Made by a program: the position numbers and the translations under genes. From NCBI GenBank assembly GCA_051294375.1, contig JBJCIZ010000744.1, positions 1,230,262-1,294,261 on the forward strand: a DNA stretch of 64,000 nt, read 5' to 3'. Shown here one piece after another: positions 2,765 to 62,700 of this stretch. How positions within the stretch are numbered: position 1 is the stretch's first letter; each line of letters starts with the position of its first letter. This DNA comes from Paraspadella gotoi (Eukaryota; Animalia; Chaetognatha). The notes below the pieces were generated by a model, which worked only from the letters and a program-made list of their open reading frames with translations, had not been told where the DNA came from and did no database searches.

Positions 2765-13546
<10,782 letters not shown>

Positions 13547-18772: not shown

Positions 18773-20497
18773 TCACCTCTGGAAGGATTTAGTGACATTG
18801 ATATAGTTCTGCCATTCTCCCTGCCCTGCGCCAGCGCTGCCGCTGCCGCTGCCGCTCAACACTTCGACAGACTTGAGGAAATTCTTTCCGTCGAATCCTC
18901 CGAGGGCGAAGAGGAATGAACCGGAGAATCCGGGAGGAGGTTTGGTCAACGGCACCGGGGATGAGTTGGCCTCGGCGCCGCAAGCCTCCTTCGCACCGGT
19001 CTCTGCGCCGCAAACCTCCTTCGTGCCGCCTTCCGCGCCGCAGGCCTCCTTCGGGCCGCCCTCTGCGCCGCAGGCCCCCTTCGGGCCGCCTTCCGCGCCG
19101 CGAACCTCCTTCGGGCCGGCCTCGGCGTCGTCGGGAATCGGGAGAGAGTCCAACTCAATTTCGAGCTTGACGATTCGCAGGTTCGCGCGTGGAACGTTTA
19201 ACTGAGGCCCTATATTAATAAATAAATAAATAAATAAATTGGAACGATCAATAAGAATAAAAATTGTATCCAATCAATCAGTAAATACTAAATAAATAAG
19301 TTATCTTGTCCCCGACTTTTGGACAGGCCATGCTTGGCTTCCCTACCAATGAAGTGAAATGTTTTCAAGAACCGTTTAAATAGTATAAAACTTGGTAAAT
19401 TTGCAATAAAACCCCCCCTTCTTCTTCCCTCCCGGTCTGACCGATCGTCCATTGGTTGGTCGCCAGATCGAAGATCTCGGTGCTGCCCACGGATCGAGTT
19501 CCATCCGATCCTCCAACGACGAAGAATCGATCGTCGAACATCGAGACGTCGCATCCGCGTCGGGCCGTGTTCATTGACGGCAAGAACCCCCATCTGCAAT
19601 GAGGGAAATTGATGGGAGGGGATGTTGACGGCTTATTTTTTTAGAAATAGTCGACGTCGCGCGGTCGTGCAAATATCCCCCCCCCCCAAAAAAAAACAAA
19701 CAAACATAACTACGGATAGAGAGAACATGGTGTGTGGCGGAGACGAATTCGCCGGTACGGGGTTTGATCTCTCTCACATTCTGTCTTCCTTCACGACCAC
19801 TAAACGATAAACAATTAACAATAAACAAATTCCAACCCGTGTCAGCGAAAACGTCTCCGTTGCGATAATATAAAAGGCGAACCCCAAAAAAAATTAAAAA
19901 AAATAAAATGAAAACTCCAGGAAAGAAGAAGTTGGAGTGATTTATTTTTTCGGTGCGAAAATACGAATAGAGAAAAACGTAATAGAGTTCTTCTTTTCAA
20001 ACCCTTTTTTTATTATTTAGTCACCATTTATGTAGGTTCATTACGCAATGTTTGTACTTACCTTTTTCAACGATACATCATTATAAATCATACTGCCTTT
20101 TTTTTTGGGGGGGGGTGACCAACGGCTAATTTTAGAAGATCACTGAAATAAAATAGCACTGTTCATTTTAAGTCACTATTTTGTAAAAAAAAAATTAAAT
20201 AAATAACCATAGAAGCGGCAGATACCACTCAAACATCAAAAACTGCTGTCATGAGCTGATGACTTTGCTCGACGAGCCACCGGATCACAACCGAGGAAGT
20301 TACCGCTACACAATAGTACAAAATAATTTACATAATTACCGCTTTACTCGCCCATCGCTCACCTATTGCTTAGTAAACTTCATCATTATAAACATTAACT
20401 TCAACGCCGATTCCTCCGCTCGACCATGGCCATTGACCAATCCGAACCCTCCCCCCCTCCTCTTTCACCTGTCGGCCTAATTCGAACAACACCCCCC

Positions 20498-20581
<84 letters not shown>

Positions 20582-22566
20582 TGTCGCTCTTCGCGTCGTA
20601 GACTTCGAAACTGTTGAGACAATTCCACGAGTCGCTTCCACCCACGACGTAGATGGAACCGTTGTGAGAGCAGACGCCTGCTTGATTGCGATTGTGGTTC
20701 ATCGACGCCATCTGATGCCAGTTGCCGGACTTGGGATCAAAGGCGACGCAATGCTTGGAGGAAGTTACGGCGTCGCTGCTGCCGCCAACGACGACTAGAA
20801 GACCGAGCAAGGCGCAGACGCCGGCGTTGCTTCGAGGCTGAGGGAGATCCCCGACGCGTTCCCATTTTTTCAGCTTAGAATGAAGATAATAAAAACGCGA
20901 CAATATGCAAATTGAATTGAATTCATTTAAAAAAACCAAAAAAAACAACAATTTTAATATGACTATGAAATTGCTAAAACCAATATAAAATTATCCATTC
21001 GTCCAACAAATAAGCTGTCATCCTTTCGAGTCATTAATATTAAAATTAAAAGTAAATTATAAAACGAACCTCCGGATCATAAACTTCGACAGAGTGCAGC
21101 TCCGAGGATCCATCGCTTCCTCCGACCACGTAAACTTTTCCGTCCAAAACGATCGAATCGAATCTTCCTCTGCGAAACAAAACAAAAAAACTTTATAAAT
21201 ATTTTTGTCCGCAATAAAAAAAAGTCAAAATGTTTCATGCAATTAAAGGAATTTGAATCCCAAGTATTTTTTTTTTGTTTTTTGTTTTTAAACCGGATGC
21301 TCATATATGCTCATATATGCTCATATATGCAGCAGAGGTTCGGGCTAAAAATAAATAGATAACCAGACGTCCCATAAACCAGGCATTTTGAGGTGTAATT
21401 ATTAAGAAATGGATTAAGCCTCAACAATAAGCCTTTAGTCTAATTTCTCATAAATTAAGTGGTAAATTTCGAGGCGTTGTGGTAGTACATAATATCCCCA
21501 CAACTCGTCACGAAAATCCGCAGCACAAATGGCGCCGGAGGTGATAGTACAAGAAAGAGGAGGGGTCATCTCACCCTCACCCTCTTTCACAAAGATAATT
21601 TTTAAATACTGAGAGATGGGTAGAATAAAAATTGTTAAAAAATTATGGGTATTTCACAATTAGTTCGGAAAATGATTGTATATTTAAAACAGTCTTTTTC
21701 CATGAAACTTAGGATCGCAAAAATTAAAAAATAATGAATCGCGGCTTGTGAGAAAATTGAAGAAGCAAAGGCTGAGATGAGGCCTGTCTGTAAGCGATGA
21801 TGTTATGGATACATTTATCATTTGGCAGCCTGATGAGCAGCTATGTTTTTTTTTCCCCCATTTACATTAAAATCCCAAAAATAAATTTTCGCTAATCAAT
21901 TATTATCAAAAGCAAGCAAATATTACAAAATGATTGTTATTTTTTTTAATACAAAACATGATTAAAATGGAGGATTCACCTCTACTGTGGTTAACTCCTA
22001 TCTTTACTTTTGATCGGTGATCTAAAATTTGCGATGACTTCCCAAATCTTGATTTACTAATAAACAATATGGGAAAATATTGTTGCGTATCATTAAGAGT
22101 TAAGCTAAATGGACAGTGGACAACAATTGGCCGATCACGTTGTTGTTTCTCGTCTCATCTCAGTTTTAATCGTGCTCATCCATTTGAAATACCCACTTAT
22201 CTACAAAACTATTCCAAACTCACCAAATAAAGACTATATAGTCAAAATATGAAGAAAAAAAAATTGTCAAAGTGCTACGGCTGCGGGTTTATTTTGGGGG
22301 GGGGAACGAGGGAGTGGACGAACCTCGGAGTGAGCATATCAGGCAGACGGTTCCAGGCGAAGGTGCGGGGGTCGAACTGCTCGACCGAGTCGAGGCATTC
22401 CCCGCGACCGTAGCCTCCGCAGACGATCAACTTGTTGTCCACGGCGCCGGCGCCCATCCCGCAACGGGCAAATTCCATCTCCGGAAGGGCAATGCCCTGG
22501 AGGAAGGCAAAAGGCGGCGACCAAACGTCCGTAACGCGGGGAAAGGATAAACCGCTAAGTCTGATA

Positions 22567-22597
<31 letters not shown>

Positions 22598-25500
22598 GCG
22601 AGTGGCTAGAGTCAATTTCTCTCACGCATTCCGTTTGAAAAAATATCCCCCCACTTTTCCTTGCATTTTATTCTTAGGTTAATTTCCTGTTTCGATAGAT
22701 AATCTTAAAATATATTAATGTATCTCATATTTATCTAGTGTAACAAAAATACATAAAATACCATATTTATGAGATTATTTATTAGTTTTTCAAACAAACT
22801 CGCTCTCATTTGGTTTAGCATAATATAATTAAGCATGCAGAGTATAAGGGACCCGAGTATTCATTAAATAAGTTAAATATGTAACAACATTCAAAACAAA
22901 AATAAAACCCCATATCTCCCGCTATTCCCCCCCCCAAAAAAAGGGCCCAAACTTTAGGCCAAAGTGAAAACAACTCCATGGCGACCGCCCTTCTCTTGGC
23001 CACGCCCATTTCTCCCCGAAAACCAACCTGAAAATTAAGCCCGTCTTGAAGCGAAGTGGCCAACGGGCTGCCGGATCCGACCGGCGTCGTGGGCCCCGTC
23101 CCCGGCGCAGCGTCGCCGTTTCCCGCCGCGGCGGGGCCGCCGTCGCCGGGAAAGAAGAGGGAGGAGGCGGAGCCCTGGCCGAAGGCTTCGTTCTGAGGTG
23201 CGTGGCGCATCTTGATCGAGACGCCCGCCAAGTCGCATTGGCCGAGAATGAAGATGCCCAGGATGGAAGTCTCCGAGGGTTTCGTCAGAGCGATCACTTT
23301 CCATTCCTTCGCGAGAGAGAAAAAAAAAGAAATTAAATGAATGAAATTGGTACAACCAATATCAAAATATATCCCTTCATTTAATGAATAAGCCATCTTG
23401 TCCCTGACTTCGGACAGGCTATGGTGGTTTAAGTCCTCCATCAATCTTATAAGATAATAACAGACTCTCTCTGGCTTCCTTTTCAATAAAGTAGTATAAT
23501 ATGTTAAAGTATGATTCAATTGTAAAAAAAAAAGACCACTCCCTTAAGTATTAGATCGAGGAATACCATATTTTACCTTGCACTATCATTAAAATACATG
23601 AAATCACTAAAATACATATTAAATCATTTAAGTTATTAATTAAAAAAAAAAGAAGAAGAAAGAACGGACTTGCTCTTGAGTGGCTGAGTATTTTGATTTC
23701 TTCAAATGCTTTCTATTTCCGTGGGTCTTTTGTTTGAAAGGCACATTAGGGTTGAGATCGGAGGATGAGGAGAAACCGTTGCCCGATTTCCCGTTGGTTC
23801 TGTAAGGGACGTCGGAGTCGGAATCCCCGACGCCACCGTGACCGTTTTTGGGCGAAGTGTCCAGGGGGAAATCGACTGGGGAAGGGGAGGCAAAAAAAAT
23901 GTTAGGATTAAGAGGCCACGATGTAAGAATTAAAGGCCAAACAATAGAAATGATAGGCCAAGATGCGAGGAAAAAAAACATGACATGGTTCGGCTCAAAT
24001 TGAGAGCCTTCATCAGCGGGAAATAGATTGTAAAAAATTTGTAAAAAATATAGTTAAAAATATAGAGCTCAAAATAGAACTGGCCCCCTGGCCGGCCTCC
24101 CGCTTTGGCAAAGGAGAGACAGAGGCGGCGTGGCCACTGGCCACCTCTATTTCGAGCTCTATCTTTTTCTTATTTTTCAGTGTTTTTTTACTGTACCTAC
24201 CATTGGACTATATTTTCACCCTCCCTCATTCATATCTAACCTTTTCTTCAGCAGTCCTCATCTCTAATATCTGTTCTCTCAAAAATTGCTGGTTGGAAAC
24301 TTGACGTATCTCTCTCCCTCCCTATCTCTATCTCTCTCTGTAAAAGATTTTTCACAATTTGGCGCTGATGAAGGCTCAAAATTTGATCCGAAACATGTCC
24401 GTATTTTACATGTTTTAAATAAATCGTTGGGTGTAGTCAACTAAAATTTTTTTCCCCGATTTTTCTGCCTCAAGGTTTTAACTTTTATACTTGTTTAAAA
24501 AAATGACTAAAATGAAAGAATTAAAAGTCAAACTAAACGAATGAATGTCAAGTGTAGGAAGGCAAGGCACAGGTATAACTAAAGCCCATCTAAAAATACG
24601 ATAATTTAGATAAACAATTACAAAATAAACCTTTTTTTTCTCCAACTCAATTAACTCGTTTCCTTCCCGACACCAACCCCATTCAACTCGCCCCATTCGA
24701 ACCCAACCCTCACCCGATTTGTACGACGAATCCGTCCCGCTGTGAAGCGACTCGTCGCTCTCGCTCCGCGACCCGTTGCCGCCGACGCCGAGCCGGTTGG
24801 CGGAATGCTCGTTCCTGACCATGGTGCGCTTGTTGGTCGTCCGCTTGTAATCCCGGATGATCTCCGAGTTGTTGAGGGCGGCGGAGTCGTCGTCGTCGTT
24901 GCACTCGAGGCAGTCGTGGAGAGTGTTGTCCGAGTGGAGGTAGAGGAGGTTGACGTCGTTCTCCACGGCCTCCTCGAGGCGGTCGCGGTTCCCGCGGATG
25001 CTCTTCTTGAGCCAGTCGAGGACGAGGGCGGAGACGCGGTCTTCGTTTAAGGAGCGGGAGTCGCGTTCGTTCGTCGAGACGATCTCCACTTTCACCTTTG
25101 GGGGGGGGAGGTGGCGGGGAAGGGGGGAGGAAGATGTTGAGGGAAATTATTGGATTATTTGATAAAATAAATCCAAGTTTTAATCGTTAATAAATTATCG
25201 TCGTGGCATTTATATTTTTTTTTGGGTACGAGTGGAACCGAGGGTTATCGCAATCGTTGTTCTAGAATCGAAAAAGCACGGTGAGTACTATGTAGGTTTC
25301 AACAATAATTTAAATAAAATTGAGATAATTTATCGTAAAATGAATGAGATCCAGTAGGCAGATCATCATACTAATAATAAATCAACAGATGAAACCTTGA
25401 CAATCTGGAGTCTGATCTTTACATAAAGATGTTGATGAAAATAAGTCAATACTCAACGACGATGCATGCGATATAACGAGCGATCGTTTAAACAAAATGT

Positions 25501-38400: not shown

Positions 38401-41400
38401 AAATAGTTAAGAATATTATTATTAGTATTATTATTATTATTAGTAGCATATCTGTATTATTTCTATGCTCTAAGATTTAATGATGCAAGAGCGATGACAT
38501 TGAGTTCTAATTTTCTTAAAATCTTTTAGATTTATTTTAGTTTGTTTTAGCTTATTTTGTTTTAGTTTATTTTAGTTTGTTTTAGTTTATTTTGTTTTAG
38601 TTTATTTTAGTTTGTTTTAGTTTATTTTGTTTTAGTTTATTTTAGTTTGTTTTAGTTTATTTTAGTTTGTTTTAGTTTATTTTGTTTTAGTTTATTTTAG
38701 TTTGTTTTAGTTTATTTCGGCATGAAAAGTTTCCGGTCCAAACGGAACAACGACGACTAACCTTTGCAAAATAGGCTAAGTCGGTCGGCGGCGGCCTTTT
38801 TGTCGGCCATCGGGGCCGACATCCGCTCGATCCTGGCTTCATCCGGAGTCGGGGCGAATTTCTCGATGACTTTCTCTGTCGCGAGGGAGAGGGAGGGAGG
38901 GAGGAGAAGCTCGACTGGCTGACGAGGAAGGAGGAAGGGAGGAAAGAGGAAGGGTGGGAGAGAAAGAAAAGAAGAAAAACGAGGGAGGAAAGAAAAGAGA
39001 AAAACGAGGGAGGAAAGAAAAGAGAAAGGAGAGGGAAAGAAAAGTGTAAGGGAAAGGAGAAAGAACAAGAGATAAAGAAGGGGAAGAGAGGAGGAAAGGG
39101 GGAAAAAAATATGGTGAGAAGTAATGCATAGGCTTAACCATAATTCAAACTACAAACGTAGTATCCAGACACGTTTTTATTAAATATTTTATTAGTACCA
39201 CTACCACTCACTTCCGGACACTAATATAACGCTAGGATCTCTAGTTAACATTAACCAACAATAATAAAACTTTTCAAATAATGACATTTTTTAAATCGTG
39301 ATAAAAATGTTTTTTCTAAGAAAATACTATAATATGCAAATAAGATTAAGAACGCATCGAACCTGCATTTGATGCAGCATCGTCTCGAACTTTGATCGCG
39401 ACGGTGAATCGATAAAGGAATCGTGAGTGACTTTCGCCGTCGATGGATTCACGGCGACGAAGGAGATCGTCACGTCGGCAAAGGAGGTGGAGAGGGGCTG
39501 GGGGAGGAAATAAGGAATTCAAACAATTAAATTAAGGGAGGGGTCCTTTATACAATCGAAACGATTCATTGATAGGGAAGCCAGATACTCTGAGAGTGAA
39601 TAAACGAGACTGTGTGAGAGCCTTGATTGAAAGCTTGCAGGGACCTGCTACGTTATTATCTTGTAAGAGTGATTTTAGCCTGTCCAAAGTCAGGGGGAAG
39701 ATAGCTCATTTATTAAATGAATGGATAATTTTATGTTGGAAGTACCAATTTAATAAAGTTCTTATGGTATAATTAAAGATTAAACATGGTCGGTTTGTAG
39801 ATAAGGTGCTTTAGCAATGAAACGGGTCCTGGGCTTGGAATTAGGCTTGGGGGGTTTTCGAGGCCCCCAAGGCGGTTTAAGGCCGTCCTCATGCTTCCCG
39901 CAGGGTAGGTACCATTATTGGTGATCAATCCCGGTACATGATGGCCACGAGCCGATGTTATTACTCAATGAGCCACCGGGTCACGACTGAAGGTAACATG
40001 CTTTATAATTATAGGCGGGGGTAAACATATTGCGATGCCCGACTACAGGTTATTTAACACACGTTAGTTATGAGGATTAGGGATGGTTAAGAAAAGGTGG
40101 GTGATAGGTGAGGGTAAGCGATTGCGAGGTTATGGGTTCATAACATCGCAGGAGTATCAAGCCACCAGAATCGAATCGGATCGGAGGCTCGGGCGAAATG
40201 GAATCGCCGAATCCTGATTGGTCAAGCACGAACCGGAATCGACCAATCAGCTTGCAGAATCATTGAATTGTAAATTTTACCCACGTCGCCGATCCTCTTC
40301 CCAAGATATAAATAGACTTAGCTTGTTCTAGTTTCAGTAGAATTGATCAAGACTCCTGCGCGCGTCTCACCGTCACCTTTATTCTCAGAATAAAACTTAT
40401 TCTTGATTTCGTCCATAGAAATCCATGAGTTTTTCCTTAAATGTGGTGGCAGCGGTGGGATTCGAACCCACGCCTCCGAAGAGACTGGTGTAAATATACA
40501 TATTTAAAAATGTTTAGGTATTACATAAACATTTTTAAAACAACGATTTTATAATTGTAAACTGTCCTGTTATTTTACGTAAAAACGTAACAACGTAAAA
40601 AACCCAAAAACCCACCTTCCCCGCAGCATCAGCTGCAGCCGTGGCGACGACGGGTCCTTCCTTGACGCACATGAGGATTCCAGAGTCGGAAGACTCCGCG
40701 TCTTTATCACCGCGTGGCGCATCGTCGGCGGCGGCGCCTGATGCCTCGTCGGGGTCGCCTACGCCTGCGGGATTAATATTTTATTTAATTTTACTATAAT
40801 TCTTTCGAGGAAGTTAAATTTAAGTTTTGGTATGTAGATGATGAGTCATTTCTTTCTTTTTTTCTATTATAACTGTTGTTAAAATAATCCAAAGAATAAA
40901 ATCCAAATTTGAGTTTAAGATTTTTGAATGAAACCGACGAAAGATGAAAGTGAAATGAAGCAAAGACGCTTGTCAACTCGACGACGACGACGACGACGAC
41001 GATTAAAAATGGAAATAATCAATGGATCGATTGTTTTTTTCTTTTTCTTGGCTCTGGTTTCGCTTTTGTTTCTCTTTGCCTTTGGTTTCGATCGAAATCC
41101 GAATTCGAGGCTTCGATCCTCGATCTCGAGGTGGCTTCGTCTTGAGGGTCATTGTGGTTGTTTCGTCACGTGACAAGTCATTGGACAATGGACACGAGAC
41201 AGTTCGGAAACGGGCGCCACCTTTTATTGTTTTCTTAATTATTTTTTATTCAGCCATTATCATGGGAACATCGAATAAAAACATAATTCACAGGCGAACC
41301 CCTGAAGTGCATATTTCGAAGAAACCCAGTAACAACAAACTAAATAGATAAAAATGTACAGAAGGCTTCGTATTATAAAATGAGTTACCCGTTTTTTGTG

Positions 41401-44023
41401 ACCAGAATCTGAAATTCGCCTTGATAGTTCTATTTGTATTCACATAGGTATCGTTCATTCCAAATTTCAATGAATTTGGTTCAGTAGCATCAACGGAATG
41501 GACCTATAAACGGACTTGGTTGGCCTAGTGATGTGATTGCTCGTCTCCTTCACGAATCATCAGAATGCCGACGAATCACGGACCTTAGTTCAACCTTAGA
41601 ATGACCAATGACCGACAGAGGAACCGACGGAGGGATTGATGATCAAAATTGCTAAGAGAACTCTAGGCATTCACCTCTACACTCAAACTCAAGAAAGAAC
41701 ACTTATTCAAATAATTATTGAACCGTTTAATATTGTCATCACCTTTGTCTTAACCTTTGTCATCGTTACCTATGTCATCACCCTAATCATTGTCCGTCAT
41801 AAATAAAACTATCATTCAACCAAATACTTTGCCACTTATTATTTACCCTCGTTATTTGACTAAACGTCAACGGTAGTTTTCTCGGAACGTGTTCTTGTCC
41901 CAAATAATATGAAGCCTTCTGTAATCTGTATACAAGATCATCATCAACATCGTCATCATGAAGAAAAGCAACTGACCTCCTTCGGATCGGAATGAATCGA
42001 CATCGCGACCCACGAGCGTCGACTTCGTGTAGAGGGCGCTGAGTCGACGCGAGAAGAGTCCAGACTTCGAGTCTTAACAATGTAAGAGATGGATTCTTGA
42101 GATTGAGTTTAGCAATTAACATTTGCATATAGTAGTAAATAATTTTAAGTCCCATTAATTTATGTTCCGGTTTATTATTAGGCATATTTTTGGATTTTAC
42201 TATTATTTTCTACATTGTTTAGTAGTTTGATTCATAGATAATTCTGTGATAATTTGATAGAATAATTATGACATTAATGATCGAGAGTTTATCTCTATTG
42301 GTTATATTATTTCTATATTGGTTATATTATTTCTCTATTTCATAACTCATAAATACTTTATTATTCAAAGGTGAAATCAATGGTCAGCTCGGATCAAGTG
42401 TAGTACTCTCATGTTAGAGTTCCATATATTATTTAATATTGTATTAATAAAGAAATTATATTTCTATTTAGTTATAGTAATAAATATAAGGTAAATTAGA
42501 AAGGCAGAGAGAGCATTATCACTGAAGATGCCATCTGATGAAGAAGTAAACTTAATATATAATTCATAGCCTACAATTTGCTTATTTATTAAAAATATTA
42601 ACGAAGCGTCGCTCTTCTCACCGGAATTAGCTTTGAGCGCCGCCGTCTCAGTCTGCCTGACCACGCCCACTTTGTATCCTTTGGCCACGAGACGTCGCAC
42701 GTGGACGAAGAGTCTATGAAAACGGAGATATGGGGTAGAAAGTAGATTATAATACTTTATAATAAAATTGACTTGAACTTCGCTGATCATAAACTGGTCC
42801 GATCCTAACAATCACTATAACAATATATAACAAACGACCCAAGCCAATTTTACCCAGTTCCACCTCATCGAACCAACCTCTGGAATGTTTGGAACGACGA
42901 CAACATCGAGGATAATGACAAAGACGACGACGACAACAACCCCCTTGTCATCATCCCTCGGCGCTCGCCTGTGAGTGGGGATCGACGCAGTGTTGAAGTT
43001 GTGATCTGGATGACTCACGATGTTGAGGACTTTGGCCGCCACGTCAGCGTCGTCGCCGAAAAACCTTTTTTTTGTGACGAGAAACAAGATTTAAAAATTA
43101 TTTTGCATGTTGAAGTGTTGAATTGATGAAGGCTAATTTGGTTGAAACATAAACAATATGGACCGCATGTAATAAGAATGCAGCAATTCAAAAACGAAAA
43201 GTTTGAAGATGAAATTATTAATGTAAATATCTCTCAACGATAAAGATTTAACACTCAAACTAGATTCGACTGAAGATTATAAGATTTATCTCGTAATAAT
43301 TGTGATATTTAAACGTTTTTATTTTAAAGTTATCACGTTTCAGCAATGTTTTTGTTTTGATAGTTTTTTGTTTTTGTAAAAAAAAAAAAAACTTAACCCC
43401 CCCTTAAAATTAACCCACCTAAACTTGTATCCGCACTCGACGAGCAGGATAGCGTCGGGTCGCTTCGCTTTGATGTCGACGAACTGTTCCTCCAGTGGCG
43501 TCAACTTCGTCTTCTTTCCTTTAGAGATCGACGAACTATCCGTTTTTTCGGCGTCAGTTTTTTCGGCGCCATTTTTACCGGCGTCGTTGCAGTTATCGGC
43601 GCCGTTAATCTCTTTCGCCGACGCCTTCGCGGTGCCAGAGGCGATGCCGCCGTTCTCAACGAATTCGAACGCGAGCAAATCATCTCTCGTCTTTCGTTTC
43701 GAGTCGGCGACGTCGGCGTCGGTTTTCTTCGTCGGCCGCGTGGCGGCGGCGTCGTCTTCGTCGTCGTCGCGAGGTCGTTTGGCGCCGCGGGAGGAAGGTG
43801 ACGCAAAGTATTTAGAGATAGAAGATTGTTTCATTTTGGCGGAAGCGTCGGCTTTAAATTTGGTGGGCGTGGCGACGGATTTACATTTAGTGGGCGTGGC
43901 GCCGCCTTTAAAATTGGAAGGGGCGTGGCCATCTTCATTTTCGTCTCTAATTCCGAGCGGCGACGCCTCTTTAGATTTGTGTCCTTTGGCTCCGCGATGA
44001 AATCGGAACCAAGGCTTCGACAT
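35403..44023 (-). CDS. MSH3: DNA mismatch repair protein MSH3
   Basis: PIP box KQSSISKYF; MSH3-type [28 protein letters not shown]; [17 protein letters not shown]; ATPase [41 protein letters not shown]. About 10 exons. Confidence 0.95.
36691..36948 (+). mobile_element. Family A element, longest copy (TGTGGC...GCCACA) with twister-like core at 36813-36894
   Basis: 6-bp terminal inverted repeat, several hairpins, and homology to the 32.1 kb and 51.0 kb copies. No TSD visible for this copy. Confidence 0.85.
38528..38716. repeat. T-rich ~10/15-bp minisatellite (TTTTAGTTTR)n
   Basis: Direct inspection. Confidence 0.85.
39530..39750 (+). repeat. Family B copy (internal deletion in core)
   Basis: Homologous to 46895-47156. 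Confidence 0.8.
39810..39998 (-). mobile_element. Family E element with degenerate twister-like core
   Basis: The minus strand reads GA-GGA-CGGCCU-UAA-ACC-GC-[CUUGGGGG/CCCCCAAG]-CCUAA-UUCCAAGC-CCAGG. Its 3' end ACCCG..TTGCTAAA resembles the family A end. Confidence 0.55.
40444..40490 (-). pseudogene. 3' half of tRNA-Leu with templated CCA
   Basis: CACCAGTCTCTTCGGAGGCGTGGGTTCGAATCCCACCGCTGCCA+CCA. This covers the 3' anticodon stem, long variable arm, T arm and acceptor strand of a metazoan tRNA-Leu(TAG/AAG type). The 5' half is absent. Confidence 0.85.
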
Positions 44024-44156
44024 TTCTCGCTTAGGGTTGTAAAAAGGCGGAAAGTATGAAATTATAAAAACATATAAAAAGGTAAATAACGAAAAAGCCG
44101 AGGTGTGTGTAAACATAAAATAACCATTAGTTTTATTCAATCTCTATTTGGAGGAT

Positions 44157-44784: not shown

Positions 44785-47700
44785 TCACTTCATGGGCGAC
44801 CAAGGCGCCGGCAGTAAGATCTTTGTCCAGTAGTGGGAACAGTGGGGAAGCAGTTCCTCCTTCGTCAATACGTAATCCGGGTCGAGAGCCGCGTCGATGG
44901 AACTTTGGACTCTGTGGAAACAAAAGATCCTGTTGCTGTAAATGATGCTGGAGAGGATGCTGCAGGGCATGCTAAAGCATAATGTGTTGGCTTTAATTTA
45001 TTGATACGGTGAACTGGTGCAAAATTGTTTATCAAATAATGGTCATTGTAATTCACCTTCCCAAGGATATTAAAATCTTACCCCATGAGGGAAACCTATA
45101 ATCAAAATCTCTATACACCCCTCTATTCCACACCTATGGTCCAAATCGGGATAATGCCACAAGTGATAGACTGTGTTCATGACTCCTCCCGCTTGAGCCT
45201 TCCATGCGGCGAGGAGGTCTCCCTGATGAGACTCTTCCTTTCCCATCAACATCTCCTGCATCTTAGTCGCCCACTTGGATTCGGAGCCGGTGAGGGTATG
45301 GGCGCAAAGCTCGTAAACGCCTAAATGGGGAGAAAAATACGTTAACATCATTTGCATATTTCGGTAAATTTTTTATATGAAGTTTAGAAGGTTAAATCAA
45401 GTTTATCTTTAAAATTACCACGCAATTGTAGAACCTAATAACTCACTGCTCCTTGCGACGTACTGATTAAACTTACATAGAACGTAACATTGTTAATTGC
45501 GTTTCCTTGATACACATTTTTCTTTATATTGATGCCTATGGGACAGACCTTGGTGAACATTCTCAAAAGTGAGAGGAAAATCTGTATTAATTATTGCCGG
45601 GTCTGATTATCAGGAATCATTTCTCATGTCACATAAGTCTCTGTCCCGATTATCGATTTTTTTTTCTAAAAATAATTTGTAGCACAGGCAATTTAATGTC
45701 ATTGTTTCAAATCAAAAAATAACTTTCCCAGCTTGAAAATTTCTTCAATCCTTTTTTTCAAATCCCCCCCTCCCCCCACCTTCACCTCCTTCCCCCCGCG
45801 GGTCCTCGATCCTGCTCCAGGGCAGCAGAGCGAGGGCGACGTTGTCCTGCTTGACGACGCCTTTGAAGACTTTGGAGATGAACTTCTCTTGCCAGTCGTC
45901 GTCGTCGGCGAGGGCCGCGCGGACGGAGCAGCGGTGGGCGAAGGAGTCGTACTCCCAAATGTGGACCGCCTAAGATTTGAAGACGATTTATTTTGACATC
46001 TTTAACCGCAAGGCGGCGCCCACACGGGCTAGACGAATTGACTTGCCCTCCTGCACATCAATGGCCGCTGATGAACGGTTGATGGATTTTTAGTTCACCA
46101 ATAATGGAAACGTTTTTTTAGGTTTTAAATTCGAAATTTTTTTTTTATTTGATCGATTGAACAAATTGATTTGTTTAATTGTTTAATTAAGCAGAACATG
46201 TGAGAATAATTATTAATTGATAAATTTGAATCGCGTTTGAATGGCGATGACTAATTTAGCTTCAGTTTAAAAGAGTAGAATTCTTTATAAAAGATAAATC
46301 AAGAGAAGAGAAGAGAAGAGAAGAGAAGAGAAGAGAGAAACGAAGATAAGATTCAGGCTTTGAGGCAGCTTCGACATAAGACAAGACATTAGACAATAGA
46401 AAAGTCAACTTCTTTACATTAAAAGGAGCCAATGTCCCCATGTCCCGATCCAATATCCATGTCCCTCTTTACCCAAGCAAATCCACACCCCCCCCCGCTC
46501 CTCTCCATTCATAACCTGATTGATTCCTCCGAATTCGGTGAACCAATAACCAAGCAGCTTGGAATGATTGGTTCTCAAGTGAATGAAGTCGCCGCTGAGT
46601 TTTTTAAAGTCGACGATGAATTCCGGTTTCACGTCGTAGATTCGAAGTTCGTGAACTTTGGGTCGAGCGGAGGAGAAGGAGGGGGAAGGGGGAGAGGATG
46701 AGGAGGCGTCGACGTTAGCAGGCTCCGCCTTTTGTTCGAGAAAATGAAATCATTCGTCAGCATGAATAATATAAGCTTATTTATTAAATGAATGGATAAT
46801 TTTTATATTGGTTGTACCAATTTCATAAAATTCAGCTCCTTGTATTTTGATGCTAGTGCGGAGTACAATAAGACAAGTATTCCCCGATCTAATACTTAAG
46901 GGAGTGGTCTTTTCATACAATTGAAACATTCTTTGAATATTATACCACTTCATTGATAGGGAAGCCAGGTACTCTGGGAGTGAATAAACGAGACTGTGAG
47001 AGAGTCTTGATTGAAAGCTTGTAGGGACCTGCTATGTCATTATCTTGTAAGAGTGATGGAGGCCTTAAACCACCAAAGCCTGTCCAAAGTCAGGGGCAAG
47101 ATAGCTTATTTATTAAATGAATGGATAATTTTTATATTGGTTGTACCAATTTCATAAGTAACAATATATGACAAAGAAATTGTGCAAGTTGCGAGATTAC
47201 TCGTTTTACCGAATTTTCATGTTTTTTTTTTTTAAATGATGTAAAAATTATGTTATAATTTTATTTATGCAGTTATTAAGAGAAATTTACGAGATTGGGA
47301 TAACTAATATAAAAATTATCCATTCATTCGAGATATAAGCTATCTTGGCCCTGATAATGGTTATGGTGGTTTAAGTCCTCCATCACACTTACAAGATAAT
47401 AACATTGTAGCAAGACCCTGCAAGCTTTAAATGAATACTGTCTTCAATTGCGTAATATGTATATATGTATATAAATTATATATATTATATATATATTAAC
47501 ATACCATTAATTATCTAACTTATTATTTAACTAATTAATTTAACTTATTTAAATTATTTATAATTTACAAATTATTACAAAACCTTAATAAATTTCTCTA
47601 AATTAAATAATGCTGTGATGCCAGGGTTTTGGTCTGTTTAAGATAAACATTCAAATATACTTTAAAATATAAGATAAGCAACAACGGAGGATCACCATTT

Positions 47701-48518
47701 GGTGATGGCTCGCCTATACCTGGATATTGGGATTAAAGAGCCGAAATCCATGAAGGGTATAGGTTCCCAACTGATGACTCCCATTGTAAAACATAAATGA
47801 TAAAAATAGAAAAAAATAATTAAAAAATAGGATAAAGAAAAATTAAAATTTTCATTAAAGTATTTTAAAATTATATTCATGACATAAAGGTGCCCCTATA
47901 GAACCTTTCCCCAGTATGTATCCCTATCAGAACATACAATTCTACATGGTAGTCTTATCCCTATTGGTAAAAAAAAAATCATGTATAACGTTGGTCCCCC
48001 TCAAAAAATTATCCATTCCCACCCCTTTCTGTTCAGCTCTTAGATATTATGATTTTTCATTAATGACTTTCTAACAGAAATGATGTGTGATATCTATTAG
48101 AAACTAGGACAGATAGTAATCTAACCTTGTGTTGTATAGATGCTCCCTCTATTTCCAGAAGACAACACTGACTTCCCCTTCCCAAAATGAATTATTATAT
48201 AAATAAAACATTTTTTAAAAAAGAAAGCAATATATGTTTGATTAAATAATATAGATTAAATACTAATCCTTCATAAAAATATTAAAATATTAATTAGAAA
48301 AATAGTTTTAAAATAGTGAAACAAGTAATTTGCAAATTTTCTTATATATATTATATATATATGACATTAATAACGGTCTCCACCTTCGATGCAGCGGACG
48401 ACGCGGACGCCCAGCGCCGCCCCGCGGCTAAACTCGAAACCCCGACGCGTGCGACGCCGTCTTCGACGAGGACGGCGGCGCCGGGAAGCGACGTCAACGC
48501 CGTTCGCAACCAACGCAT
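44785..48518 (-). CDS. NIPSNAP: NIPSNAP family protein
   Basis: Mitochondrial-presequence-like N-terminus from 48518. Motifs LGYWFTEFGGINQ, VHIWEYDSFAHR, GVYEL, VYHLWHYPDLDHR and terminal ILLPAPWSPMK*. Confidence 0.88.
46774..47156 (+). mobile_element. Family B, fullest copy: ~329-bp unit with terminal direct repeat and intact twister-like core (47041-47103)
   Basis: The 54-bp block AGCTTATTTATT...CCAATTTCATA occurs at 46774 and 47103. At least 10 related copies or fragments lie in the window. Confidence 0.85.
47300..47440 (-). repeat. Family B degenerate copy
   Basis: Reverse-complement homology to 47010-47135. Confidence 0.7.
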
Positions 48519-49027
48519 CTTGACTTTTGTTTATGTTTACTTTAGCGGGAAGCTCGAGTGAAACAAATCTGAGTAAAGTAAAGATTCCGAGTCAATATTT
48601 AGGGTAAACAAAATACAAAAATATGTATGTATGGCGATTAGACGATCGACGGGTCGTGGAAAAAATTAAACGATACGAAACACACATCGGCCGTCTGGAC
48701 GGATCGAGAAATTTGGGATTTAAAAAGAGAGGAAAGAAAATAGTAATAACAAGGGTAAATAATAATTAATTTCGAACTATCTAACCTTGTTCAAGGGGTA
48801 TTTAAACGATGGAAGGAGAGAGAGCAAATAAGCTTTTCAATAATAATGCTCAACAATGGCTATTTATTTATTTAACTTAAAATATTAGCCAAATTCCTGA
48901 TAAAGAACAACTGATTCTTCTTCGTCATCGGCGGGGCATTTCTTTTTATGTCTTCCAAAAAGTTTCTTGATTTGACTACTCGACCGCGACGACGACGACG
49001 ACGACGAATCTATTTTTAGATCTTGAA

Positions 49028-50269: not shown

Positions 50270-53200
50270 GATGGGTCAACAATTCAAACGACTTTGCCAT
50301 TGGGATATCTCTGTATGAAAATGGTTTACCTAATTATACATGACATCGGTTAATATAGGTTCAGTGGATATTAAAGCTTAATCAGATTACGACAATATGC
50401 AAATGAGATTGAGGAACTCAATCTCTCTTTCTCTCTCTCTCTCTTTCTCTCTCTCTCACCACCCCCACCCGGTTGGCTCAGCGAGTCCCTCCCCATGACA
50501 TCCAGCACATCGACGGCGGCGGCGAGCAGCCCCGTCTTGTGGGCGGGGCGGAGGAAATGAAGGAGGACGCGTGTGGCGCGATAAAGGACGAAGTATTCCT
50601 TGGCCGTCTCGCTCTTCAAGTCTGAGCGGAGAGTCTCGAGCACCTTGGGTTGGAAGATGGGAAGATGGACAGATTGGTGAAATCGACGGACGTACGGATT
50701 GGATAAAAATGACATGGGACTAACTCGAATTAACCAAATGACTACAATTGTTTAACCGTTTAATGTAAAAAAAAAAAAAATTAATGATTGTCGGCATCCT
50801 TCCAATTTTAACCTTGGCCAAAACGTCGGCGCGACTCAATGTTCTGAGAATCAAGAGACAAGACAAGAATCGCGCGTGAAGATTCGGACTTCGGAAGAAA
50901 AGATCGAGAGACGACGACGATCTGTGAAAAAGGGTTTTTTTCAAAAAAGGGGGCAGAGGGGGTTTTAAGGGGATGAAGAATTTGTGTAAAGATTGAAAGT
51001 TGAGACCGCTATTTCATAAAGAATAATTTATTAAGTCTACCGTGGCGGTATATTCACACCGCCTCACATCCACCGTCGTTCAGCCAATCCCATTGGCTCA
51101 GAGGGGGAAATCATCCTAACGACTTCCCTCTTGGCAAAGTGAGACCGTCCTGAGGATCGAAAGCCCCAAAAGCCAACAGTGAGATGCCCCATCCCAATGG
51201 GCATCACAGGCGACCCGGCTGTTGCCATCCTACTAGGTTTTATTATTTTTTATCTTGGTTTTGTAAACGCCGAATAGTTTCTAAGCTGTTTTAAAGACAG
51301 CATCCCTATTCATACCAAACTACAACAAACAGGACAAGATTAAATTTCACAAAACGCTGAGGAAGGAGTCAATAAAGAAAAGAGGAGAAAGAATAATATA
51401 ACGAGCGTCGTTCTGATCGATACAGTCTTTAAATATCTCAATTTAATCAAACCAATTTAAATGTTAAAAACTAACAAAGACGGAATTCTTACCTCCCTTC
51501 CGACTTTTCGGTTTTATAAGGAAGAAGTAAATTAGATTCGGAGACGGATTCTCTCACAGCGAAGGCAGAGGCGAGGTTCTGTTATATAATAAATGTAATA
51601 ATAAATATATAAAATCCTACTTACTAACATAATTTCGTAATTAAATACCACCAATATAAATATTATTCTTTATTCAACCAACAAGTTATCTTGCCTCCTG
51701 ACTTTGGACGGGCTTTAGTGATTTAAGGCCACCATCTTTCGTACAAGTTAACTCTCACAAGTTCACTCTCACACCTCAGAGTACCCGGCTTTCTATAGAC
51801 CCGGTCTCTATAATTTATCTCCCCCCCCATCCCGCACAACCCTCACCCGCCCCCCACCTCCCCTATGTCAACTCACCCCACTTCTCTCTCCTTCCTTCTC
51901 CCCCCAAACGATCTCTCCCAAGTGTCTCAACGACGCGGTGGGCGTGGCCGTCGTCGACGCCTCGTCGTTCCTTCGCTTCTCCTCGAGCGCCGCCAACGCC
52001 CAATGAAGAAACTTTAGCGCCGGAAGTTGAGTCCGCGCCACGCCGCTACCGCCGCAGATCAGCGGCAGCACGGCGACGAGCGGCGGCAGCGTCCGGTGGC
52101 AGCGGTCGCGCAGCGGCAGCCGGCGATCGACGCCGACGAGAGAGTTGGCGGAGGCGGCGAGGACGTCGGGCGGAGATCGATCGAGATGGACGAGGAGCCA
52201 CTCGAGGAGAGAAAGGACGAGATCGAGGAAAGGACGAAGAGAAGGTTGAGAAGACGATTGAGGAACGGGTCGAGCTGACCCTTCTGGAGGACATCGTCGA
52301 GTCTCGGCTCCTTCAGCGTCCGATCGAGATCTCTCTCTAACCATCGGCGGCGAAGTGGCTCGTCCGCTTTCGCCTTTTCGCAATTCCGGCGACCGATCCC
52401 CGCCTCTTCGCCCGGCGAGCCGTTCCAAGTTGGTCACCCTCGCCTTCAACCTCGAGTTCTTCGACGTCAACGCCTCCGCCTCGGACGTTAATCGACGATG
52501 TTCCTGTTACAGAAGGTTGTGTCCGTCAATCTCGATTGCATCATCGCAGGAGTATCAAGCCACCAAAAGCAAATCGGATCGGAGACTTGGGCGATCTCCG
52601 CGGAAATTAGTTTAGATTTAGTTTAGATTTAGATTCAAAGATGCTCATGTAATTTGGCGAAGTAATCATCACGGACTATTAAGGGCTTATAAATCATTAA
52701 AACTGGCCGACTTTTTCATAATTAATAATATGACTTAGGAAGCGTTTTATTTAAGGCTTATTTATGTTGGGACGCGTCCCTAATCGATGACTGATGTTTG
52801 AAAGCATAGTCATTACTAATGACATGAGGCCTCCTCTGAAGCCCGAATTATTATTCCTCTATTTAAATTAATATTTCAGCATTAAATTAAATACTAAAAG
52901 AAAGAAAAAAGTACCTCCTTGAGCTCCGCGTGGGAAACCCGCAGTCCCTCGTAACTAGTCTTCAGCCTCTCGTGATTCTTGACGGCGTCCTCCAACCGGC
53001 GCTTCCAGTCTCTCGTCGACGACTGCGCCGTCGCGACATCTCCGGCGTCGGACAATCTTCTCTCCACCTCCTCGTCCACCGCGCGATCGAAATACGCCTC
53101 CGCCTCCACGAGCGCCGCCTCCCGCTCGTCCAAGGCGGATTCTCGGAGGCGAAGTCGGTCGCGTTCGAGGCGGAGTTTGTCGGAGATGGCGGTCAATTCG

Positions 53201-55113: not shown

Positions 55114-57062
55114 TCAACCCGCGGCGAATATCTCAATCGCCTTCGAGTTCAACCGGAAAAAGTCTCGTTCATCGGTTTGCGTCAAATTCTTTCCTCCGAA
55201 TTTCTTGTAGAGGGAGATGGCGTTTCGGTTCCACTCGAGACAAGTCCATTCCAGTCTGAAGAATATACTAACTTATTGAAATGATTAGCTAAAAAATTTT
55301 ATAATGCTTCATTAATAATTTAAGGAGCTAAGGATCACTTTGAGAGTAGTGAAAGAGTGAAAGAATCTAGGGAAAGCTGGCAGAGTCTAGCAATGTCATT
55401 ATCTTGAAAAGAGATGGAGTCCTTCACTCATTATATCCTGTCCTTGTCCAAAGTCAAGAGACAAGTTATCATTTATTGAATGATTGGATAATTGTTTCAT
55501 TGGTTGTTTCAATTAAATTACTATTAAATACTACAATGATGTGATCTAAATATTTTTTACTGACCGAACGCAATCCATATCCACGGCCCTATTGACCACT
55601 TCGATGAATAGCGTTTGACCCCAACCTTTCCTTCTCTCGCTCTCTTTCACGTAAAGGTCCTCCAAAAACATGGTCAGCCCTTCCCAAGCGGAATATGAGG
55701 GAAAGAAGAGGGCGTAAGCAATTATTTCCTATATAGAAATGGCAAGCGTTATATCTTAAAATTAAAAAAAAAAAAGACTAGAAGAAAAAGATTGTTTTTC
55801 CATCAAATTCAACAACCTTTTCAACCTCCACGACCAAGGAAAAATACTTGGGTTTCGAAGAGAACCCGTCCAACTTCAATTTCTCCGTCGTCATAGCAAC
55901 CTGCTCCGCCATGTTTTCAAAAACCGCCAATTCCATGATCAAACTAAAAATAGCCTCGCAATCTCCGACGATGGCCGGACGAATCGAATCGCGTTTCGTC
56001 TACGAGATGGAACTTTTTTTTATATTCAAACTGAGCCATGCAAAATTTAACAAAATCTAACATTTCAAACGCTATCGATTAATGATTATTACATCGTTAA
56101 GGCCTTTGATAGAATCCATGGAATCTCGGTCCAACTGATAATAATTCCACTTTTCCTTCGCCGTCAAATTAATGGCGCCGCGTTTTTCGTAAAAACGAAT
56201 CGCGATATCGTTCCATCTCATGCATATCCATTGGACTCTTTAAAAAAATGACAATATAATTATTATATTATATTAAAGATTACAATAAATTTACCAATAC
56301 ACAAACCAAAAAGTACGAAACCTGCGACAACCCTCCTTCAACGCCAGCCGCGTCAACTCTTTCCATAAAAGATTTCCGACTCCCTTCCCCCTCGCCGAAG
56401 GTTTGACGTAAAGATCTTCCACGAAAAAAGTCGGCCCGTCCCAAGTGGAATAACCGTCATAGAAAAGCACATAACCGATCAGTTTCTGCAACACGTACAG
56501 AAGGCTTCATATTATGAAATGATATTGCCACAATATCAGGGTTTTTTTTCCCTCGCCAAACACGGTTCCCACCAAACTACCCGAGGGAATTTTATGAAAT
56601 TTAATATATGGAGTCATAATGACTAAATAAATAGAGCTATCGAGGCGAATGTTGATGTTCAACCCCTATGGGTGACCCCCTAGGGCGCCAATAACGGCTC
56701 AGGGGTCAAATAGTGATATTCGCCTCGATAGAATCGTGCATACCAAATTTCAACCAAATAGGTTGTGAAGTCTATTCGGAACAGATATCATTTTATAATA
56801 ATAAATATATAATTCTAAATAAATTTTAATTTTATAAATTACTTGGAGCACGTGGATCCGAAATTCCTTGAGATTCAAAAAGTACCTCGTCCAATTCCGC
56901 GACGAGGCAATGATAAAGCGCCTCGTTCGAGAATCCATCCCTTCGAAGCTTTTCGCCGGTTAAGGTCACGCGTTCGGCCATGTTTTCGAATTCCGCCAAT
57001 TCCTTGATGAGTTGGACGATGGCGTCGCAATCCTCAACGGTCGCTCGACGGATTTGTAACAT
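55114..57062 (-). CDS. SAT2: Two tandem SAT2-like GNAT (diamine/thialysine N-acetyltransferase) domains, probably one fused ORF
   Basis: Domain 1 exons are 57062-56886, 56485-56322 and 56237-56093. Domain 2 exons are 55999-55817, 55728-55565 and 55255-55114. Both have ELAxFE, EDLYVK, RxKGxG, WN..AI..Y motifs and the same intron positions. Confidence 0.85.
55320..55512 (+). repeat. Family B diverged copy
   Basis: TTATCTTG..GATGG..CTTGTCCAAAGTCAAG..CAAGTTA; P4-equivalent changed to CTTG/CAAG. Confidence 0.65.
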
Positions 57063-57520: not shown

Positions 57521-57735
57521 TATGAAATTGGTACAACCAATATAAAAATTATCCGTTCATTTAATAAATAAGCTATCTTGACCCTGACTTTGGACAGGCT
57601 TTGGTGGTTTAAGGCCTCCATCATTCTTACAAGATAATGACGTTGCAGGTCCCTGCAAGCTTTCAATCAAGACTCTCTCACAGTCTCGTTTATTCACATC
57701 CAGAGTAGCTGGCTTCCCAATCAATGAAGAGGTAT
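57521..57735 (-). mobile_element. Family B copy with near-intact twister-like core (57574-57636)
   Basis: Reverse complement of 46945-47156 with few substitutions. Confidence 0.85.
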
Positions 57736-59736: not shown

Positions 59737-62700
59737 TCACTCCCAACACCTCCGAATCAAGCGCCGGACCAAACTCCTTCCCCAGTCCCTCAGCGGAACC
59801 AAGAAGCGTCGCGTGTCCAGAGCGAAAAGAGCGAAGATGAAGAATCCTTGTCCGTAGTTGAAGATGTAGTCGAGAAACTCGAGGAGGGTGAAGGAGCTCG
59901 TCAACTTGCGCCGCTTGGACTCGGGACCGTTGGTGAGTTCGATGTCGAGTCGCCAGACGCAGAGGAAGGCGCCGACGACGATGCCGACGAGGGTGAGGAA
60001 GAGGAGGATCACGTGACGGGTGAGTTGAGGGGAGGGGTAGTCGGAGGAGGAGGAGCGAGGGGTGAGGTCGGAGGGAGAGGGAGTGAGGGTTGGGGAGGAG
60101 GAGGGGTCTTCGGTGGATTCTGAGAGAAGGAGATGTTATTATATTATATATATTATTAAACTAATATAGGGGAAAGATAGCTTATTTATTAAATTATTGA
60201 ATAAGTTTTATATTGGTTTGTTCCAATTTCATATTATTATTAGTATTACCAAAATAATTTTAATTGACCACATTCTTTGCACATTCGATTCACACGTTTG
60301 AAAAATTACCAAAAAATTATAAATCCCAACTATTTTGATTAATCTTTCATAAACCTAAATAACTTACAGGCAAGATCAGCCTACAATAATAAACATGACA
60401 AAGTAATCAAAACAAACCGAACCGAATTCAAGGGGAAACCGGAAATCGGCCGACACTGATTGGTCGACAATGTAATCGACTACAACTTACCGGCTTCGCT
60501 TCCGTCTCTTTCCTCCTCTTCCTCCTCTTCCTCCTCCCTAGGAAGAGCGACGTATCCTCCATTTTCTCCCCCTCCTCTCTCTTTAATGATCACCCTCATC
60601 AACAAGACCAACGCCGCCAGAATCGTGGCCCCCGTCAGCATCAAGACCACCAACGACGCCACCGTCTGTCCGATGCCGAAACGAAAGGCCAACGTCGGCG
60701 CTATCATCGCCTCTCGCCGGAAGTGGACCACGAGTACGGCGCCGACGATGCAGAGGACGTAACCGACGCAGGCCGACAAAGCCAGAGCCTTGCGTCCCGG
60801 TCTTTCGTAGGCCGACAAACAAAGAGCGACGGCCAAAAAAGCCGCGCTGGCTCGAGAGCAAAAAGTTCCTCCGAGGATCATGTAGGAGACGATTCCGCCG
60901 ACCCACCCGCGTTTGTCGGTCACGTGGGGAAAGACGACGACGCCGACGCAGGTCTTGAGCACCGACAGCGTCAGCAGCAGCGTCAGAGCGTGCGGCAGCC
61001 GGCGGAACTCGCGCGTGGCGAGTAAGTAAGCGACGGTGAGGAGGCAGAGGACGATGGAGAGGTAGGAGATGTCGACCCCCGTCGTCTGGAGCATCCGGTT
61101 GAACTCGACGAATCGGGAAAGGCTCGTCGAGAGTGTCGCCATGGAGGCGGAGACGAACATGAGGGGAGCGGAGAGGAAGGTGCAGAGGACGAGGCCGGAG
61201 GCGAACACCTTGGTGGGGGGAAGGAGAGGGGGGGTGGAGGGTTTCGATGAAATTTGTTTTTTTTTTTGGTCTCATTGTGGACATTTTTATGAGACAACTT
61301 AGTGTCAAGAATAGCTGACTAGTGACTAGTTCCTTTTTTCCTCTTTTTTCTTTATCTCTCTCTCAACCCCCCCCCCCACCCTCTCAAACCTGCGGCGCGC
61401 ACTGATACTGATTCGCTATCACGAAAACCGTCGGCGCCGTAGGGAATGTCCCGTACAAAAATGCGAACATGGCCAAGTCTTGAGTGTCGTTGGCGGCGAT
61501 CAAAGACGCCGCTCGATGATTAACCTTTAGGGCAAAGTGAAAGTTTGGAATCGAAATTTAGACTTGGGATTTAAAAAAAAAATCTTCTATAAGTTAATAC
61601 TAATCTGTATATAATAGATATAATAGATAATATATTTTTCTTTTTTCTTACGAATGTAGCATCCCAGTAAGTTTATTTTGTAGCCATAAATAGGTTATAT
61701 AAAATTAAAAATCTGCTTTATATTTATAAATAAAAGTTTTTTGACATTTTTGACCAATTTAATGAAATATTTTTTAAAAATTGCTAAAAAGCCGTAGATT
61801 TTTGCCTATTTTTGTATTAGTCTACAAGACCATGTTGTCTGTATTCATTTTTAAAAATTTACATATCGTCTTTATAAATGCAGTGTCTTTTACATTTTTG
61901 ACCGACTTAATAAAACATTCTTTTTTAAATTTAAAAAAAAAACCCCCGCTATAAAATTTTAGCCTCGTGGCCTTTAATTTCACGTTCCATAAGCTAAAAT
62001 TTATTAATTTAATCAATGTCACACATCTTTTTCCATTCACCATCGGCGTCACGATCAATTTGACGAAGATGAGAAACGAAGGAAGAAGAAGATTGGCGAA
62101 AGTAAAAGAGGCGCGAATTTGACCCGCGATGGAAACGCCGAGAAGAAAGAGCGCCGCGCCGGGGTAGGCGTCGCCGAGAGTCTCGAGGACGAAGGTGACG
62201 AAGAGGGGCACGCGTCCGCTGAAGGAAGCGTTGCCCACGATGCCCAAGAGAGTCATGAAGACGATCGGGTTGGAGAAGACGCCGACGATAACTCGCGAGA
62301 TGGCGCGACAGGCGGAGAAGCGGCGCGGCGGAGCAGCGTCGGCGCCGGAGGTCGCGTCGTCCGGCGGCGTCGGCGTCGAGCGACGCTTGTCCCATTCGAG
62401 GAGGAAAAACGCCAATGGATTGAGAACGACGAGGGAGATTGGCGCCAAGAGGTAGACGTACTTGACGAGATCCTCGCGCTGCACGAAGACGGCTCGGAGG
62501 ATCGGCAGACCCAGAGCGAAGTCATTGGACTGCGTGGCGAAGACGGCGGCGAGGCCGGCGAGCGACGCGGCGGCGGAGACGCGGCGCAGGTGGACGAGCA
62601 GCGTGAGGATCAGCGTCGCCAGGAAGATGGCGGATTTGGAGAAGAGGACGGCGCCGAGGAATCGCCAATCGACGGAGCCGAAATCCAGGCGACACATTTC

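Follow-up and report, generated by a model that had tools for sequence, protein, structure and literature searches.

What kind of mobile element is a short repeat that carries a predicted self-cleaving RNA but no gene, and whose enzyme copies it? The question is raised by positions 46774..47156 (+) of a 64,000-nt stretch of Paraspadella gotoi contig JBJCIZ010000744.1 (positions 1,230,262 to 1,294,261; hereafter, the window), where an initial annotation made from the letters recognised a permuted twister-like ribozyme within a dispersed repeat, family B, and proposed a twister-based retrozyme. We consider it likely that family B is a non-autonomous retroelement that depends for its copying on a Penelope-like reverse transcriptase, probably of Naiad type, and is as such the twister counterpart of hammerhead retrozymes. 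The reading that fits best is that family B is a non-coding derivative of, or a parasite on, a Naiad-type element.

The focal copy (46774..47156, +) is a partial tandem of 1.16 units, found in antisense orientation within an intron of a NIPSNAP-like host gene, an exon of which ends near 46731 on the minus strand as judged by a Pfam match and reading frames. A single unit is 329 bp long and non-coding (46828..47156, +, closed by the junction 47156->46828); read as a circle, its longest stop-free run is 48 amino acids on the plus strand and 84 on the minus strand. Self-comparison of the window bears out the 54-bp terminal repeat noted earlier: 46774-46828 and 47103-47157 share 55 identical bases at a spacing of 329. 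The 5' copy of this 54-55 bp direct repeat (46774..46828, +) resembles the pseudo-long-terminal-repeats (pseudo-LTRs) of Penelope-like elements, and the 3' copy (47103..47156, +) reaches the fixed 3' end of the family, with a predicted 6-bp hairpin that finishes 6 nt short of that end.

The predicted twister occupies 47041..47103 (+), and the parse given in the initial annotation matches the sequence letter for letter, with all core elements in the order of the P5 permutation and no P3. P5 pairs 47041-47047 with 47097-47103 and P4 pairs 47079-47082 with 47091-47094; the P2' strand (47051-47054) faces P2 (47069-47071), and the GA and UAA motifs stand at 47055-47056 and 47066-47068. As claimed, both pseudoknots are complementary: T1 (47084-47086, CCA) with T1' (47057-47059, UGG), and T2 (47072-47073, AC) with its partner GU (47089-47090). 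Two features are unusual. P2 has 3 nt on the 5' strand and one bulge instead of the usual 4 bp, and P1 is replaced by a loopless palindromic hexamer (47060..47065, +; predicted duplex energy -9.1 kcal/mol) that can form two pairs in cis versus six between molecules, so that full pairing is intermolecular only. With residue roles taken from known twister chemistry (PMC8501958; this and all other literature is cited from the portions of each source that were available), the predicted cut lies between U47066 and A47067, and G47055 is the predicted general base. The sequences flanking the twister are also predicted to form a long imperfect stem (46934-47133, +) with the twister at its tip.

How well is this fold supported? 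The Rfam Twister-P5 model (RF02684) matches 47052-47094 with 25.8 bits, below its gathering score of 37.6 (E 0.0051 in 1 kb and 0.32 in the 64-kb window); the score is low because family B lacks one base of P2 and has a zero-length P1 loop. With a core pattern modelled on family B, the window gives four matches versus none in 100 shuffles, and a generic twister descriptor with any T1 finds four sites, three of them in family B, versus a mean of 0.33 in 30 shuffles. A descriptor match at 44652 was set aside as a loose chance match. Across the four copies with a complete core, T1 and T2 are 100% paired, P4 is 93.8% paired and 91.7% of all cells are paired. In the focal copy both pseudoknots are perfect and every catalytic and pseudoknot position is intact. 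The variant tables list only three positions within the fold, namely the bulged base 47052, the linker base 47096 and 47081 in P4, the last at about 1% in a large DNA run (X1) and, in run X10, on one low-depth contig. In a large test of natural P1-type twisters, imperfections in P1 and P2 were well tolerated and pseudoknot mismatches were harmful (PMC11662667). We predict, with good confidence, that well-preserved family B copies cleave themselves.

Not all of the pairing evidence first put forward for the fold holds up equally well. The AC/GU pseudoknot had been described as a double compensatory change; one pair is indeed changed on both sides, but a published descriptor already permits 'NC' at this place (PMC11662667). 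The CUUG/CAAG version of P4 reported at 55.4 kb counts for little, as that copy has a 6-nt local duplication and UCA in place of UAA, and the CCG/UGG version of T1 at 23.4 kb is a change on one side only.

Stronger support comes from outside the window. A pattern scan of metagenomes returned 65 loci, one of which, L003, has all helices; the other 64 lack helices and were dismissed as chance. L003, a contig of 1097 nt, has ends that are identical over 123 nt, as expected of a 974-nt circle, and carries the twister variant at 387-445 (-), which Rfam Twister-P5 scores at 24.2 bits. It shares with family B a P2 of 3 nt opposite four bases, one of them a bulged A, and a 6-nt palindrome without a loop in the place of P1. 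Relative to the focal copy there are two-sided changes, with an A-U pair replaced by C-G in P2 and an A-U pair by G-C in T2, another palindrome and another P5; L003 is otherwise without similarity to family B, and without a long reading frame. Of 238 scored matches, L003 and the focal copy jointly have the highest pairing score. A model trained on the four complete-core copies of the window found L003 as its only match in 71 loci (25.4 bits), where the E value of 0.0019 overstates independence because these loci had been preselected by a pattern sharing core letters. Rfam and simple patterns found no second ribozyme on the opposite strand of L003, which we regard as a candidate viroid-like RNA. 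Viral scans returned at least 120 loci and a further 51; the best match listed there (L206 and L236, one sequence) coincides in part with a start codon and its ribosome-binding site, has no Rfam match and was rejected. The scan of prokaryote genomes gave two loci, neither of them matched by the window-trained model.

The same variant also appears to be present at the ends of Naiads. We parsed by eye the last ~400 bases of 53 of the 54 records in the Naiad consensus file (File S5 in the supplement of PMC8557442), and seven of the 53 (Mley, Movir-1, Mgal, Bpla, Mphi, Scon and Mmer) have a twister fold in P5 order, each with a palindrome between T1' and the cut. By the same reading, three mussel Naiads share with family B the 3-nt bulged P2 and the AC/GU T2, two of these three also share the CCUG/CAGG P4 letter for letter, and the fold of the ctenophore Naiad is without P3, like that of family B. 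These folds came from reading the record ends; a motif search of the supplement with five L4 words gave no clear twister. In several other Naiads, core words resembling those of a hammerhead, or a different structured motif that recurs, lie close to the end. Taken together, the conserved core and these outside examples with two-sided changes support the twister fold, and since the short bulged P2 recurs in independent sequences, it looks, at the level of sequence comparison, like a natural variant rather than a defect. Our literature search, outside which lay most subscription papers, including the original twister paper, found neither a twister retrozyme nor a link between twisters and Naiads; the sequence lists in the supplements of PMC11662667 and PMC8501958, likewise outside the search, could hold the bulged-P2 variant.

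Having considered the fold, we turn to the way in which family B spreads. The initial annotation counted at least ten copies; we find 11 copies and fragments, which make up 3.06% of the window at about one copy per 6 kb, and no other dispersed repeat is as frequent in the self-comparison. Besides the focal copy, three have a complete core: 57521..57735 (-) is 5'-truncated and 95% identical, with one P2 pair broken; 23341..23598 (-) has internal deletions, one broken P2 pair and a T1 wobble; and the diverged copy 51646..51751 (-) has a two-sided P2 change from G-C to A-U, with mismatches in P1, P2, P4 and P5. Two further copies are 5'-truncated, one having lost P4 through an 11-nt deletion (11099..11358, +) and one having part of the core deleted (39565..39755, +). 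An older copy that has lost P4/L4 stands tail to tail with the focal copy (47288..47443, -). The remainder comprises a degenerate copy (55357..55514, +), two 3'-end fragments without the ribozyme (60168..60233, +, and 20964..21019, -) and a deleted, diverged fragment that keeps the P4/L4 half (19291..19390, -). In the copies that lie in sense orientation to minus-strand genes (19291-23598, 47288-47443 and 51646-51751) a ribozyme element is broken or missing throughout, and the intact focal copy is antisense; since the ribozyme is also broken in two antisense copies, at 11.2 and 39.7 kb, these numbers are uninformative as yet.

Those window copies that reach the 3' end all finish within a few bases of 47156, with 5' starts scattered along the unit. 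None starts at the predicted cut (47067): nine of the 11 extend upstream of it and two start downstream. We found no poly(A) or microsatellite tail on the window copies or at the ends seen in DNA run X1, in the unit no tRNA head and, in sense orientation, no RNA polymerase III (Pol III) A or B box, and, in the eight copies checked, no convincing target-site duplication beyond short AT-rich matches. No family B copy contains the hammerhead core pattern, and Rfam finds no hammerhead in the window.

Contigs from sequencing runs extend this picture to the whole family. In X1, 27,809 of 7,042,937 contigs fall on the 701-base focal stretch, with a summed depth of 7.45 million over the repeat versus about 215 on the flank; this ratio is not a copy number, but family B is a very large family. 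Among those listed, loose contig ends cluster behind 47155-47157 (75, 151 and 82 contigs) and behind the repeat-equivalent 46827 (86 contigs), and then continue into unrelated AT-rich letters (agreement 0.38-0.41) without poly(A). The fixed 3' end thus lies 90 nt downstream of the predicted cut, and it does not read CTRR. The junction 47156->46828 stands in three runs, X9 (three contigs), X5 (six) and X14 (one), and therefore the 329-bp period belongs to the whole family and not only to the focal copy; as two of the three are DNA runs, the junction cannot indicate a circle. Most depth falls on the 3' half of the unit. Joints that switch strand at internal positions, a pattern that 5'-inverted Penelope copies would produce, make up two of the 15 listed, each on one contig, and no strand switch is seen at the 5' side of the window copies. 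No run among those listed is recorded as RNA. In X9, which we guess to be an RNA run, one contig covers 46600-46731 only and stops at the edge of the NIPSNAP exon; such contigs give no strand, start or level. Runs X10, X14, X15 and X16, filed under other organisms or metagenomes, were rejected as evidence of other hosts or of habitat, having only one to three contigs each at a depth under 5.

The fixed 3' end, the variable 5' ends, the family-wide 329-bp junction and the lack of coding capacity together support a non-autonomous retroelement. More specifically, a 3' end that does not vary, 5'-truncated copies, a partial tandem and insertion into AT-rich sites, with no poly(A), make up a Penelope-like footprint; copies truncated at the 5' end, partly tandem or inverted are known from Penelope-like elements (PMC8557442).

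Several observations weigh against this view of family B. Nothing in the window reaches the Rfam gathering score. Covariation within the family, which the initial annotation had cited, is not significant: in the four complete-core copies it does not rise above that of shuffles (239 of 500), and two of these four have a broken middle P2 pair; family B copies look like neutrally decaying insertions. The predicted minimum-energy fold retains P5 and mispairs the core (-16.0 kcal/mol versus -7.7 for the nested twister pairs, with the pseudoknots left out of the count), and folding of the ribozyme or the unit alone gives no significant stability (z -1.5 for the unit). Not one of the 11 window copies has two ribozymes, so that, of the proposed twister retrozyme, the twister fold and the non-autonomous retroelement are supported and the retrozyme in the strict sense is not established. 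We detected no reverse transcriptase in the window, either among its 51 frames or as a convincing motif in six-frame translation. Where the unit begins, X9 reaches about 3% and X5 about 4% of peak depth, values that edge effects may lower, and therefore most copies are truncated. The loose ends listed include no second 3' end 30-40 nt away, of the kind called a Penelope 'tail'. Lastly, the twister folds of Naiads lie ~165-240 nt from the consensus end, not 90 nt, and most have P3.

If family B is nonetheless a passenger of a Penelope-like enzyme, its cycle might run as follows. Transcription through a master copy of several units would give an RNA that is cut at U47066/A47067. Once the borrowed enzyme had nicked AT-rich DNA, reverse transcription would begin inside the RNA, at 47156; copying would run back through the ribozyme and usually stop early, and occasional passage across the junction would leave a partial tandem such as the focal copy. 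With its single ribozyme, the focal copy could not by itself set a monomer free. The ribozyme is present in full upstream of the fixed end in the copies, and the template must therefore reach across the cut, being either uncut linear RNA or a re-ligated circle. Between a ligated 329-nt circle and uncut linear RNA we see little to choose, and the focal copy cannot decide, as its 5' end lies 36 nt downstream of the previous would-be cut. Twister cleavage leaves the same ends as hammerhead cleavage. Monomers of hammerhead retrozymes are circularised by RtcB in vitro (PMC7229834). In the Penelope-like element of the anole, the only one examined in vitro, the hammerhead cut falls at +26 and the internal start point of reverse transcription at +111-118, 85-92 nt downstream, and uncut RNA is the main substrate (PMC11167929). 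The match between these 85-92 nt and the 90 nt of family B may be coincidence, as the Naiad tails differ.

The most speculative step of the cycle concerns P1: the loopless palindrome might restrict cutting to paired or multimeric RNA. A palindromic helix III makes the minimal hammerheads of Penelope pseudo-LTRs act as dimers (PMC4209133), and, like these, family B has a small palindromic helix by the cut that pairs only in a dimer. The Penelope ribozymes are of another class, however, and since P1 is dispensable in the twisters tested (PMC11662667), a point that weakens the case, dimer gating in family B is conjectural.

Among known systems, the metazoan non-LTR retrozymes (PMC7229834; bioRxiv 10.64898/2026.07.22.740005) come closest. 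They too are short non-coding units, in the range of 150-450 bp, with one self-cleaving motif per unit, a head-to-tail junction and a proposed Penelope origin and mobilisation, and the 2026 preprint ties hammerhead retrozymes to Penelope pseudo-LTRs. They differ in having a type I hammerhead where family B has a predicted twister, and family B consists almost entirely of truncated monomers, with no two-ribozyme array in the window. With Naiads (PMC8557442) family B shares 5' truncation, partial tandems, very high copy number and AT-rich landing sites, but it has no protein-coding body and no P3, its P1 is a minimal one of 6 nt, and the predicted cut is 90 nt from the end, against 165-240 nt in Naiads. 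Compared with the twisters of RF02684, family B agrees in element order, UAA and GA motifs, both pseudoknots, P4 and L4, and departs from them in the 3-bp bulged P2 (not 4 bp), the loopless palindromic P1 and the score given above. The Perere-3 twister T-variants of Schistosoma mansoni (PMC8501958) are likewise tied to a retrotransposon and have an irregular P1, but there a P1-type twister sets the 5' end of an autonomous long interspersed nuclear element (LINE), while the P5-type twister of family B sits near the 3' end of a non-coding unit. A 2020 review, in the part available, places twisters only at the 5' ends of RTE elements, and hammerheads in Penelope elements and retrozymes (PMC7761336).

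Could the copies be something else? One alternative is that most of them are 5'-truncated tails, or pseudo-LTRs, of an autonomous Naiad-type element, with the 329-bp unit a minor deletion derivative. Naiads do reach tens of thousands of mostly truncated copies (PMC8557442), some of their tails appear by eye to hold this very twister variant, and the concentration of depth on the 3' half of the unit is what truncated tails would give. We nevertheless think this unlikely: in three runs, junction-spanning contigs pass from the 3' end into the start of this non-coding 329-bp unit, the longer window copies keep, further upstream, to the sequence of the unit and not to a coding body, and no common alternative upstream sequence recurs across many contigs among the loose ends listed.

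Less probable still are two explanations that dispense with Penelope-like enzymes, and we rate them alike. Copying by a LINE enzyme (RTE, CR1 or RLE type) would make family B an element of the short interspersed nuclear element (SINE) kind, with the twister as a processing signal or a passenger. LINE priming also yields a fixed 3' end and 5' truncation, and the LINE Perere-3 has twisters at its 5' end (PMC8501958); Perere-3, though, begins at the cut, whereas in family B the entire ribozyme is copied and stands close to the 3' end, and the missing poly(A) or microsatellite tail, tRNA head, sense-strand Pol III boxes and convincing target-site duplications all speak against a LINE partner. Helitron-type elements have a short hairpin near a fixed 3' end and form tandem junctions. 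The hairpin and junction of family B recall this arrangement and would fit a rolling-circle DNA element or other mobile repeat whose twister is a dead relic or a coincidence, as would an Rfam score below the cut-off and copies that decay without covariation. A relic is nonetheless hard to square with the intact catalytic and pseudoknot positions of the focal copy, the few variants within the fold and the same variant in the unrelated, circle-like L003, and the 3' end of family B lacks the CTRR of Helitrons.

The window holds other repeats and genes. Another dispersed repeat, with no sequence relationship to family B, is present at 32050-32281 (-), 36691-36946 (+) and 51039-51228 (+), with both ends apparently fixed in these three copies, and a diverged member lies at about 400-612 (+). 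By eye it shows a twister-like fold in P5 order with a P3 hairpin, a CCUAGG-type P1 region and a T1 mismatch; Rfam scores a twister-P1 match at 496-560 (22.3 bits, E 3.3) and gives no match at 36.7 kb. A local tandem at 32646-33500 has four or more diverged copies of a 158-179 bp unit. The host genome is that of an intron-rich animal, and the gene pieces recognised are all on the minus strand (737-2432, 10705-11061, 14843-15583, 20580-26617, 35406-44143, 45070-48530, 50374-52506 and 61825-62931). They include an NB-ARC/STAND NTPase, a DEAD-box helicase, copine, BTB-kelch, MSH3, NIPSNAP, CCDC138 and a GPR155-like protein, the best named matches in protein searches being MSH3 (52-58%) and GPR155 (45%).

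Returning to family B as a non-coding associate of Naiad-type elements, a stronger version can be put forward tentatively, and we hold it to be rather doubtful at present: that family B is a true twister retrozyme, in which a P1-paired twister, a 329-nt circle and a Naiad reverse transcriptase act together, and that the bulged-P2 subtype links Naiad tails, family B and viroid-like RNA. Because the variant scores below the Rfam cut-off, routine annotation misses it. The abundance of family B provides a large natural mutation series for a minimal twister, and the family lets two questions be tested, namely whether the template is a circle or uncut linear RNA, and whether P1 gates cutting in the manner of helix III. 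Animal retrozymes have been defined by their hammerheads, and Naiads have been described as lacking a canonical ribozyme. If the proposed reading is true, the retrozyme cycle would need a self-cutting RNA and not one particular class of it, and Naiads would be the likely helper.

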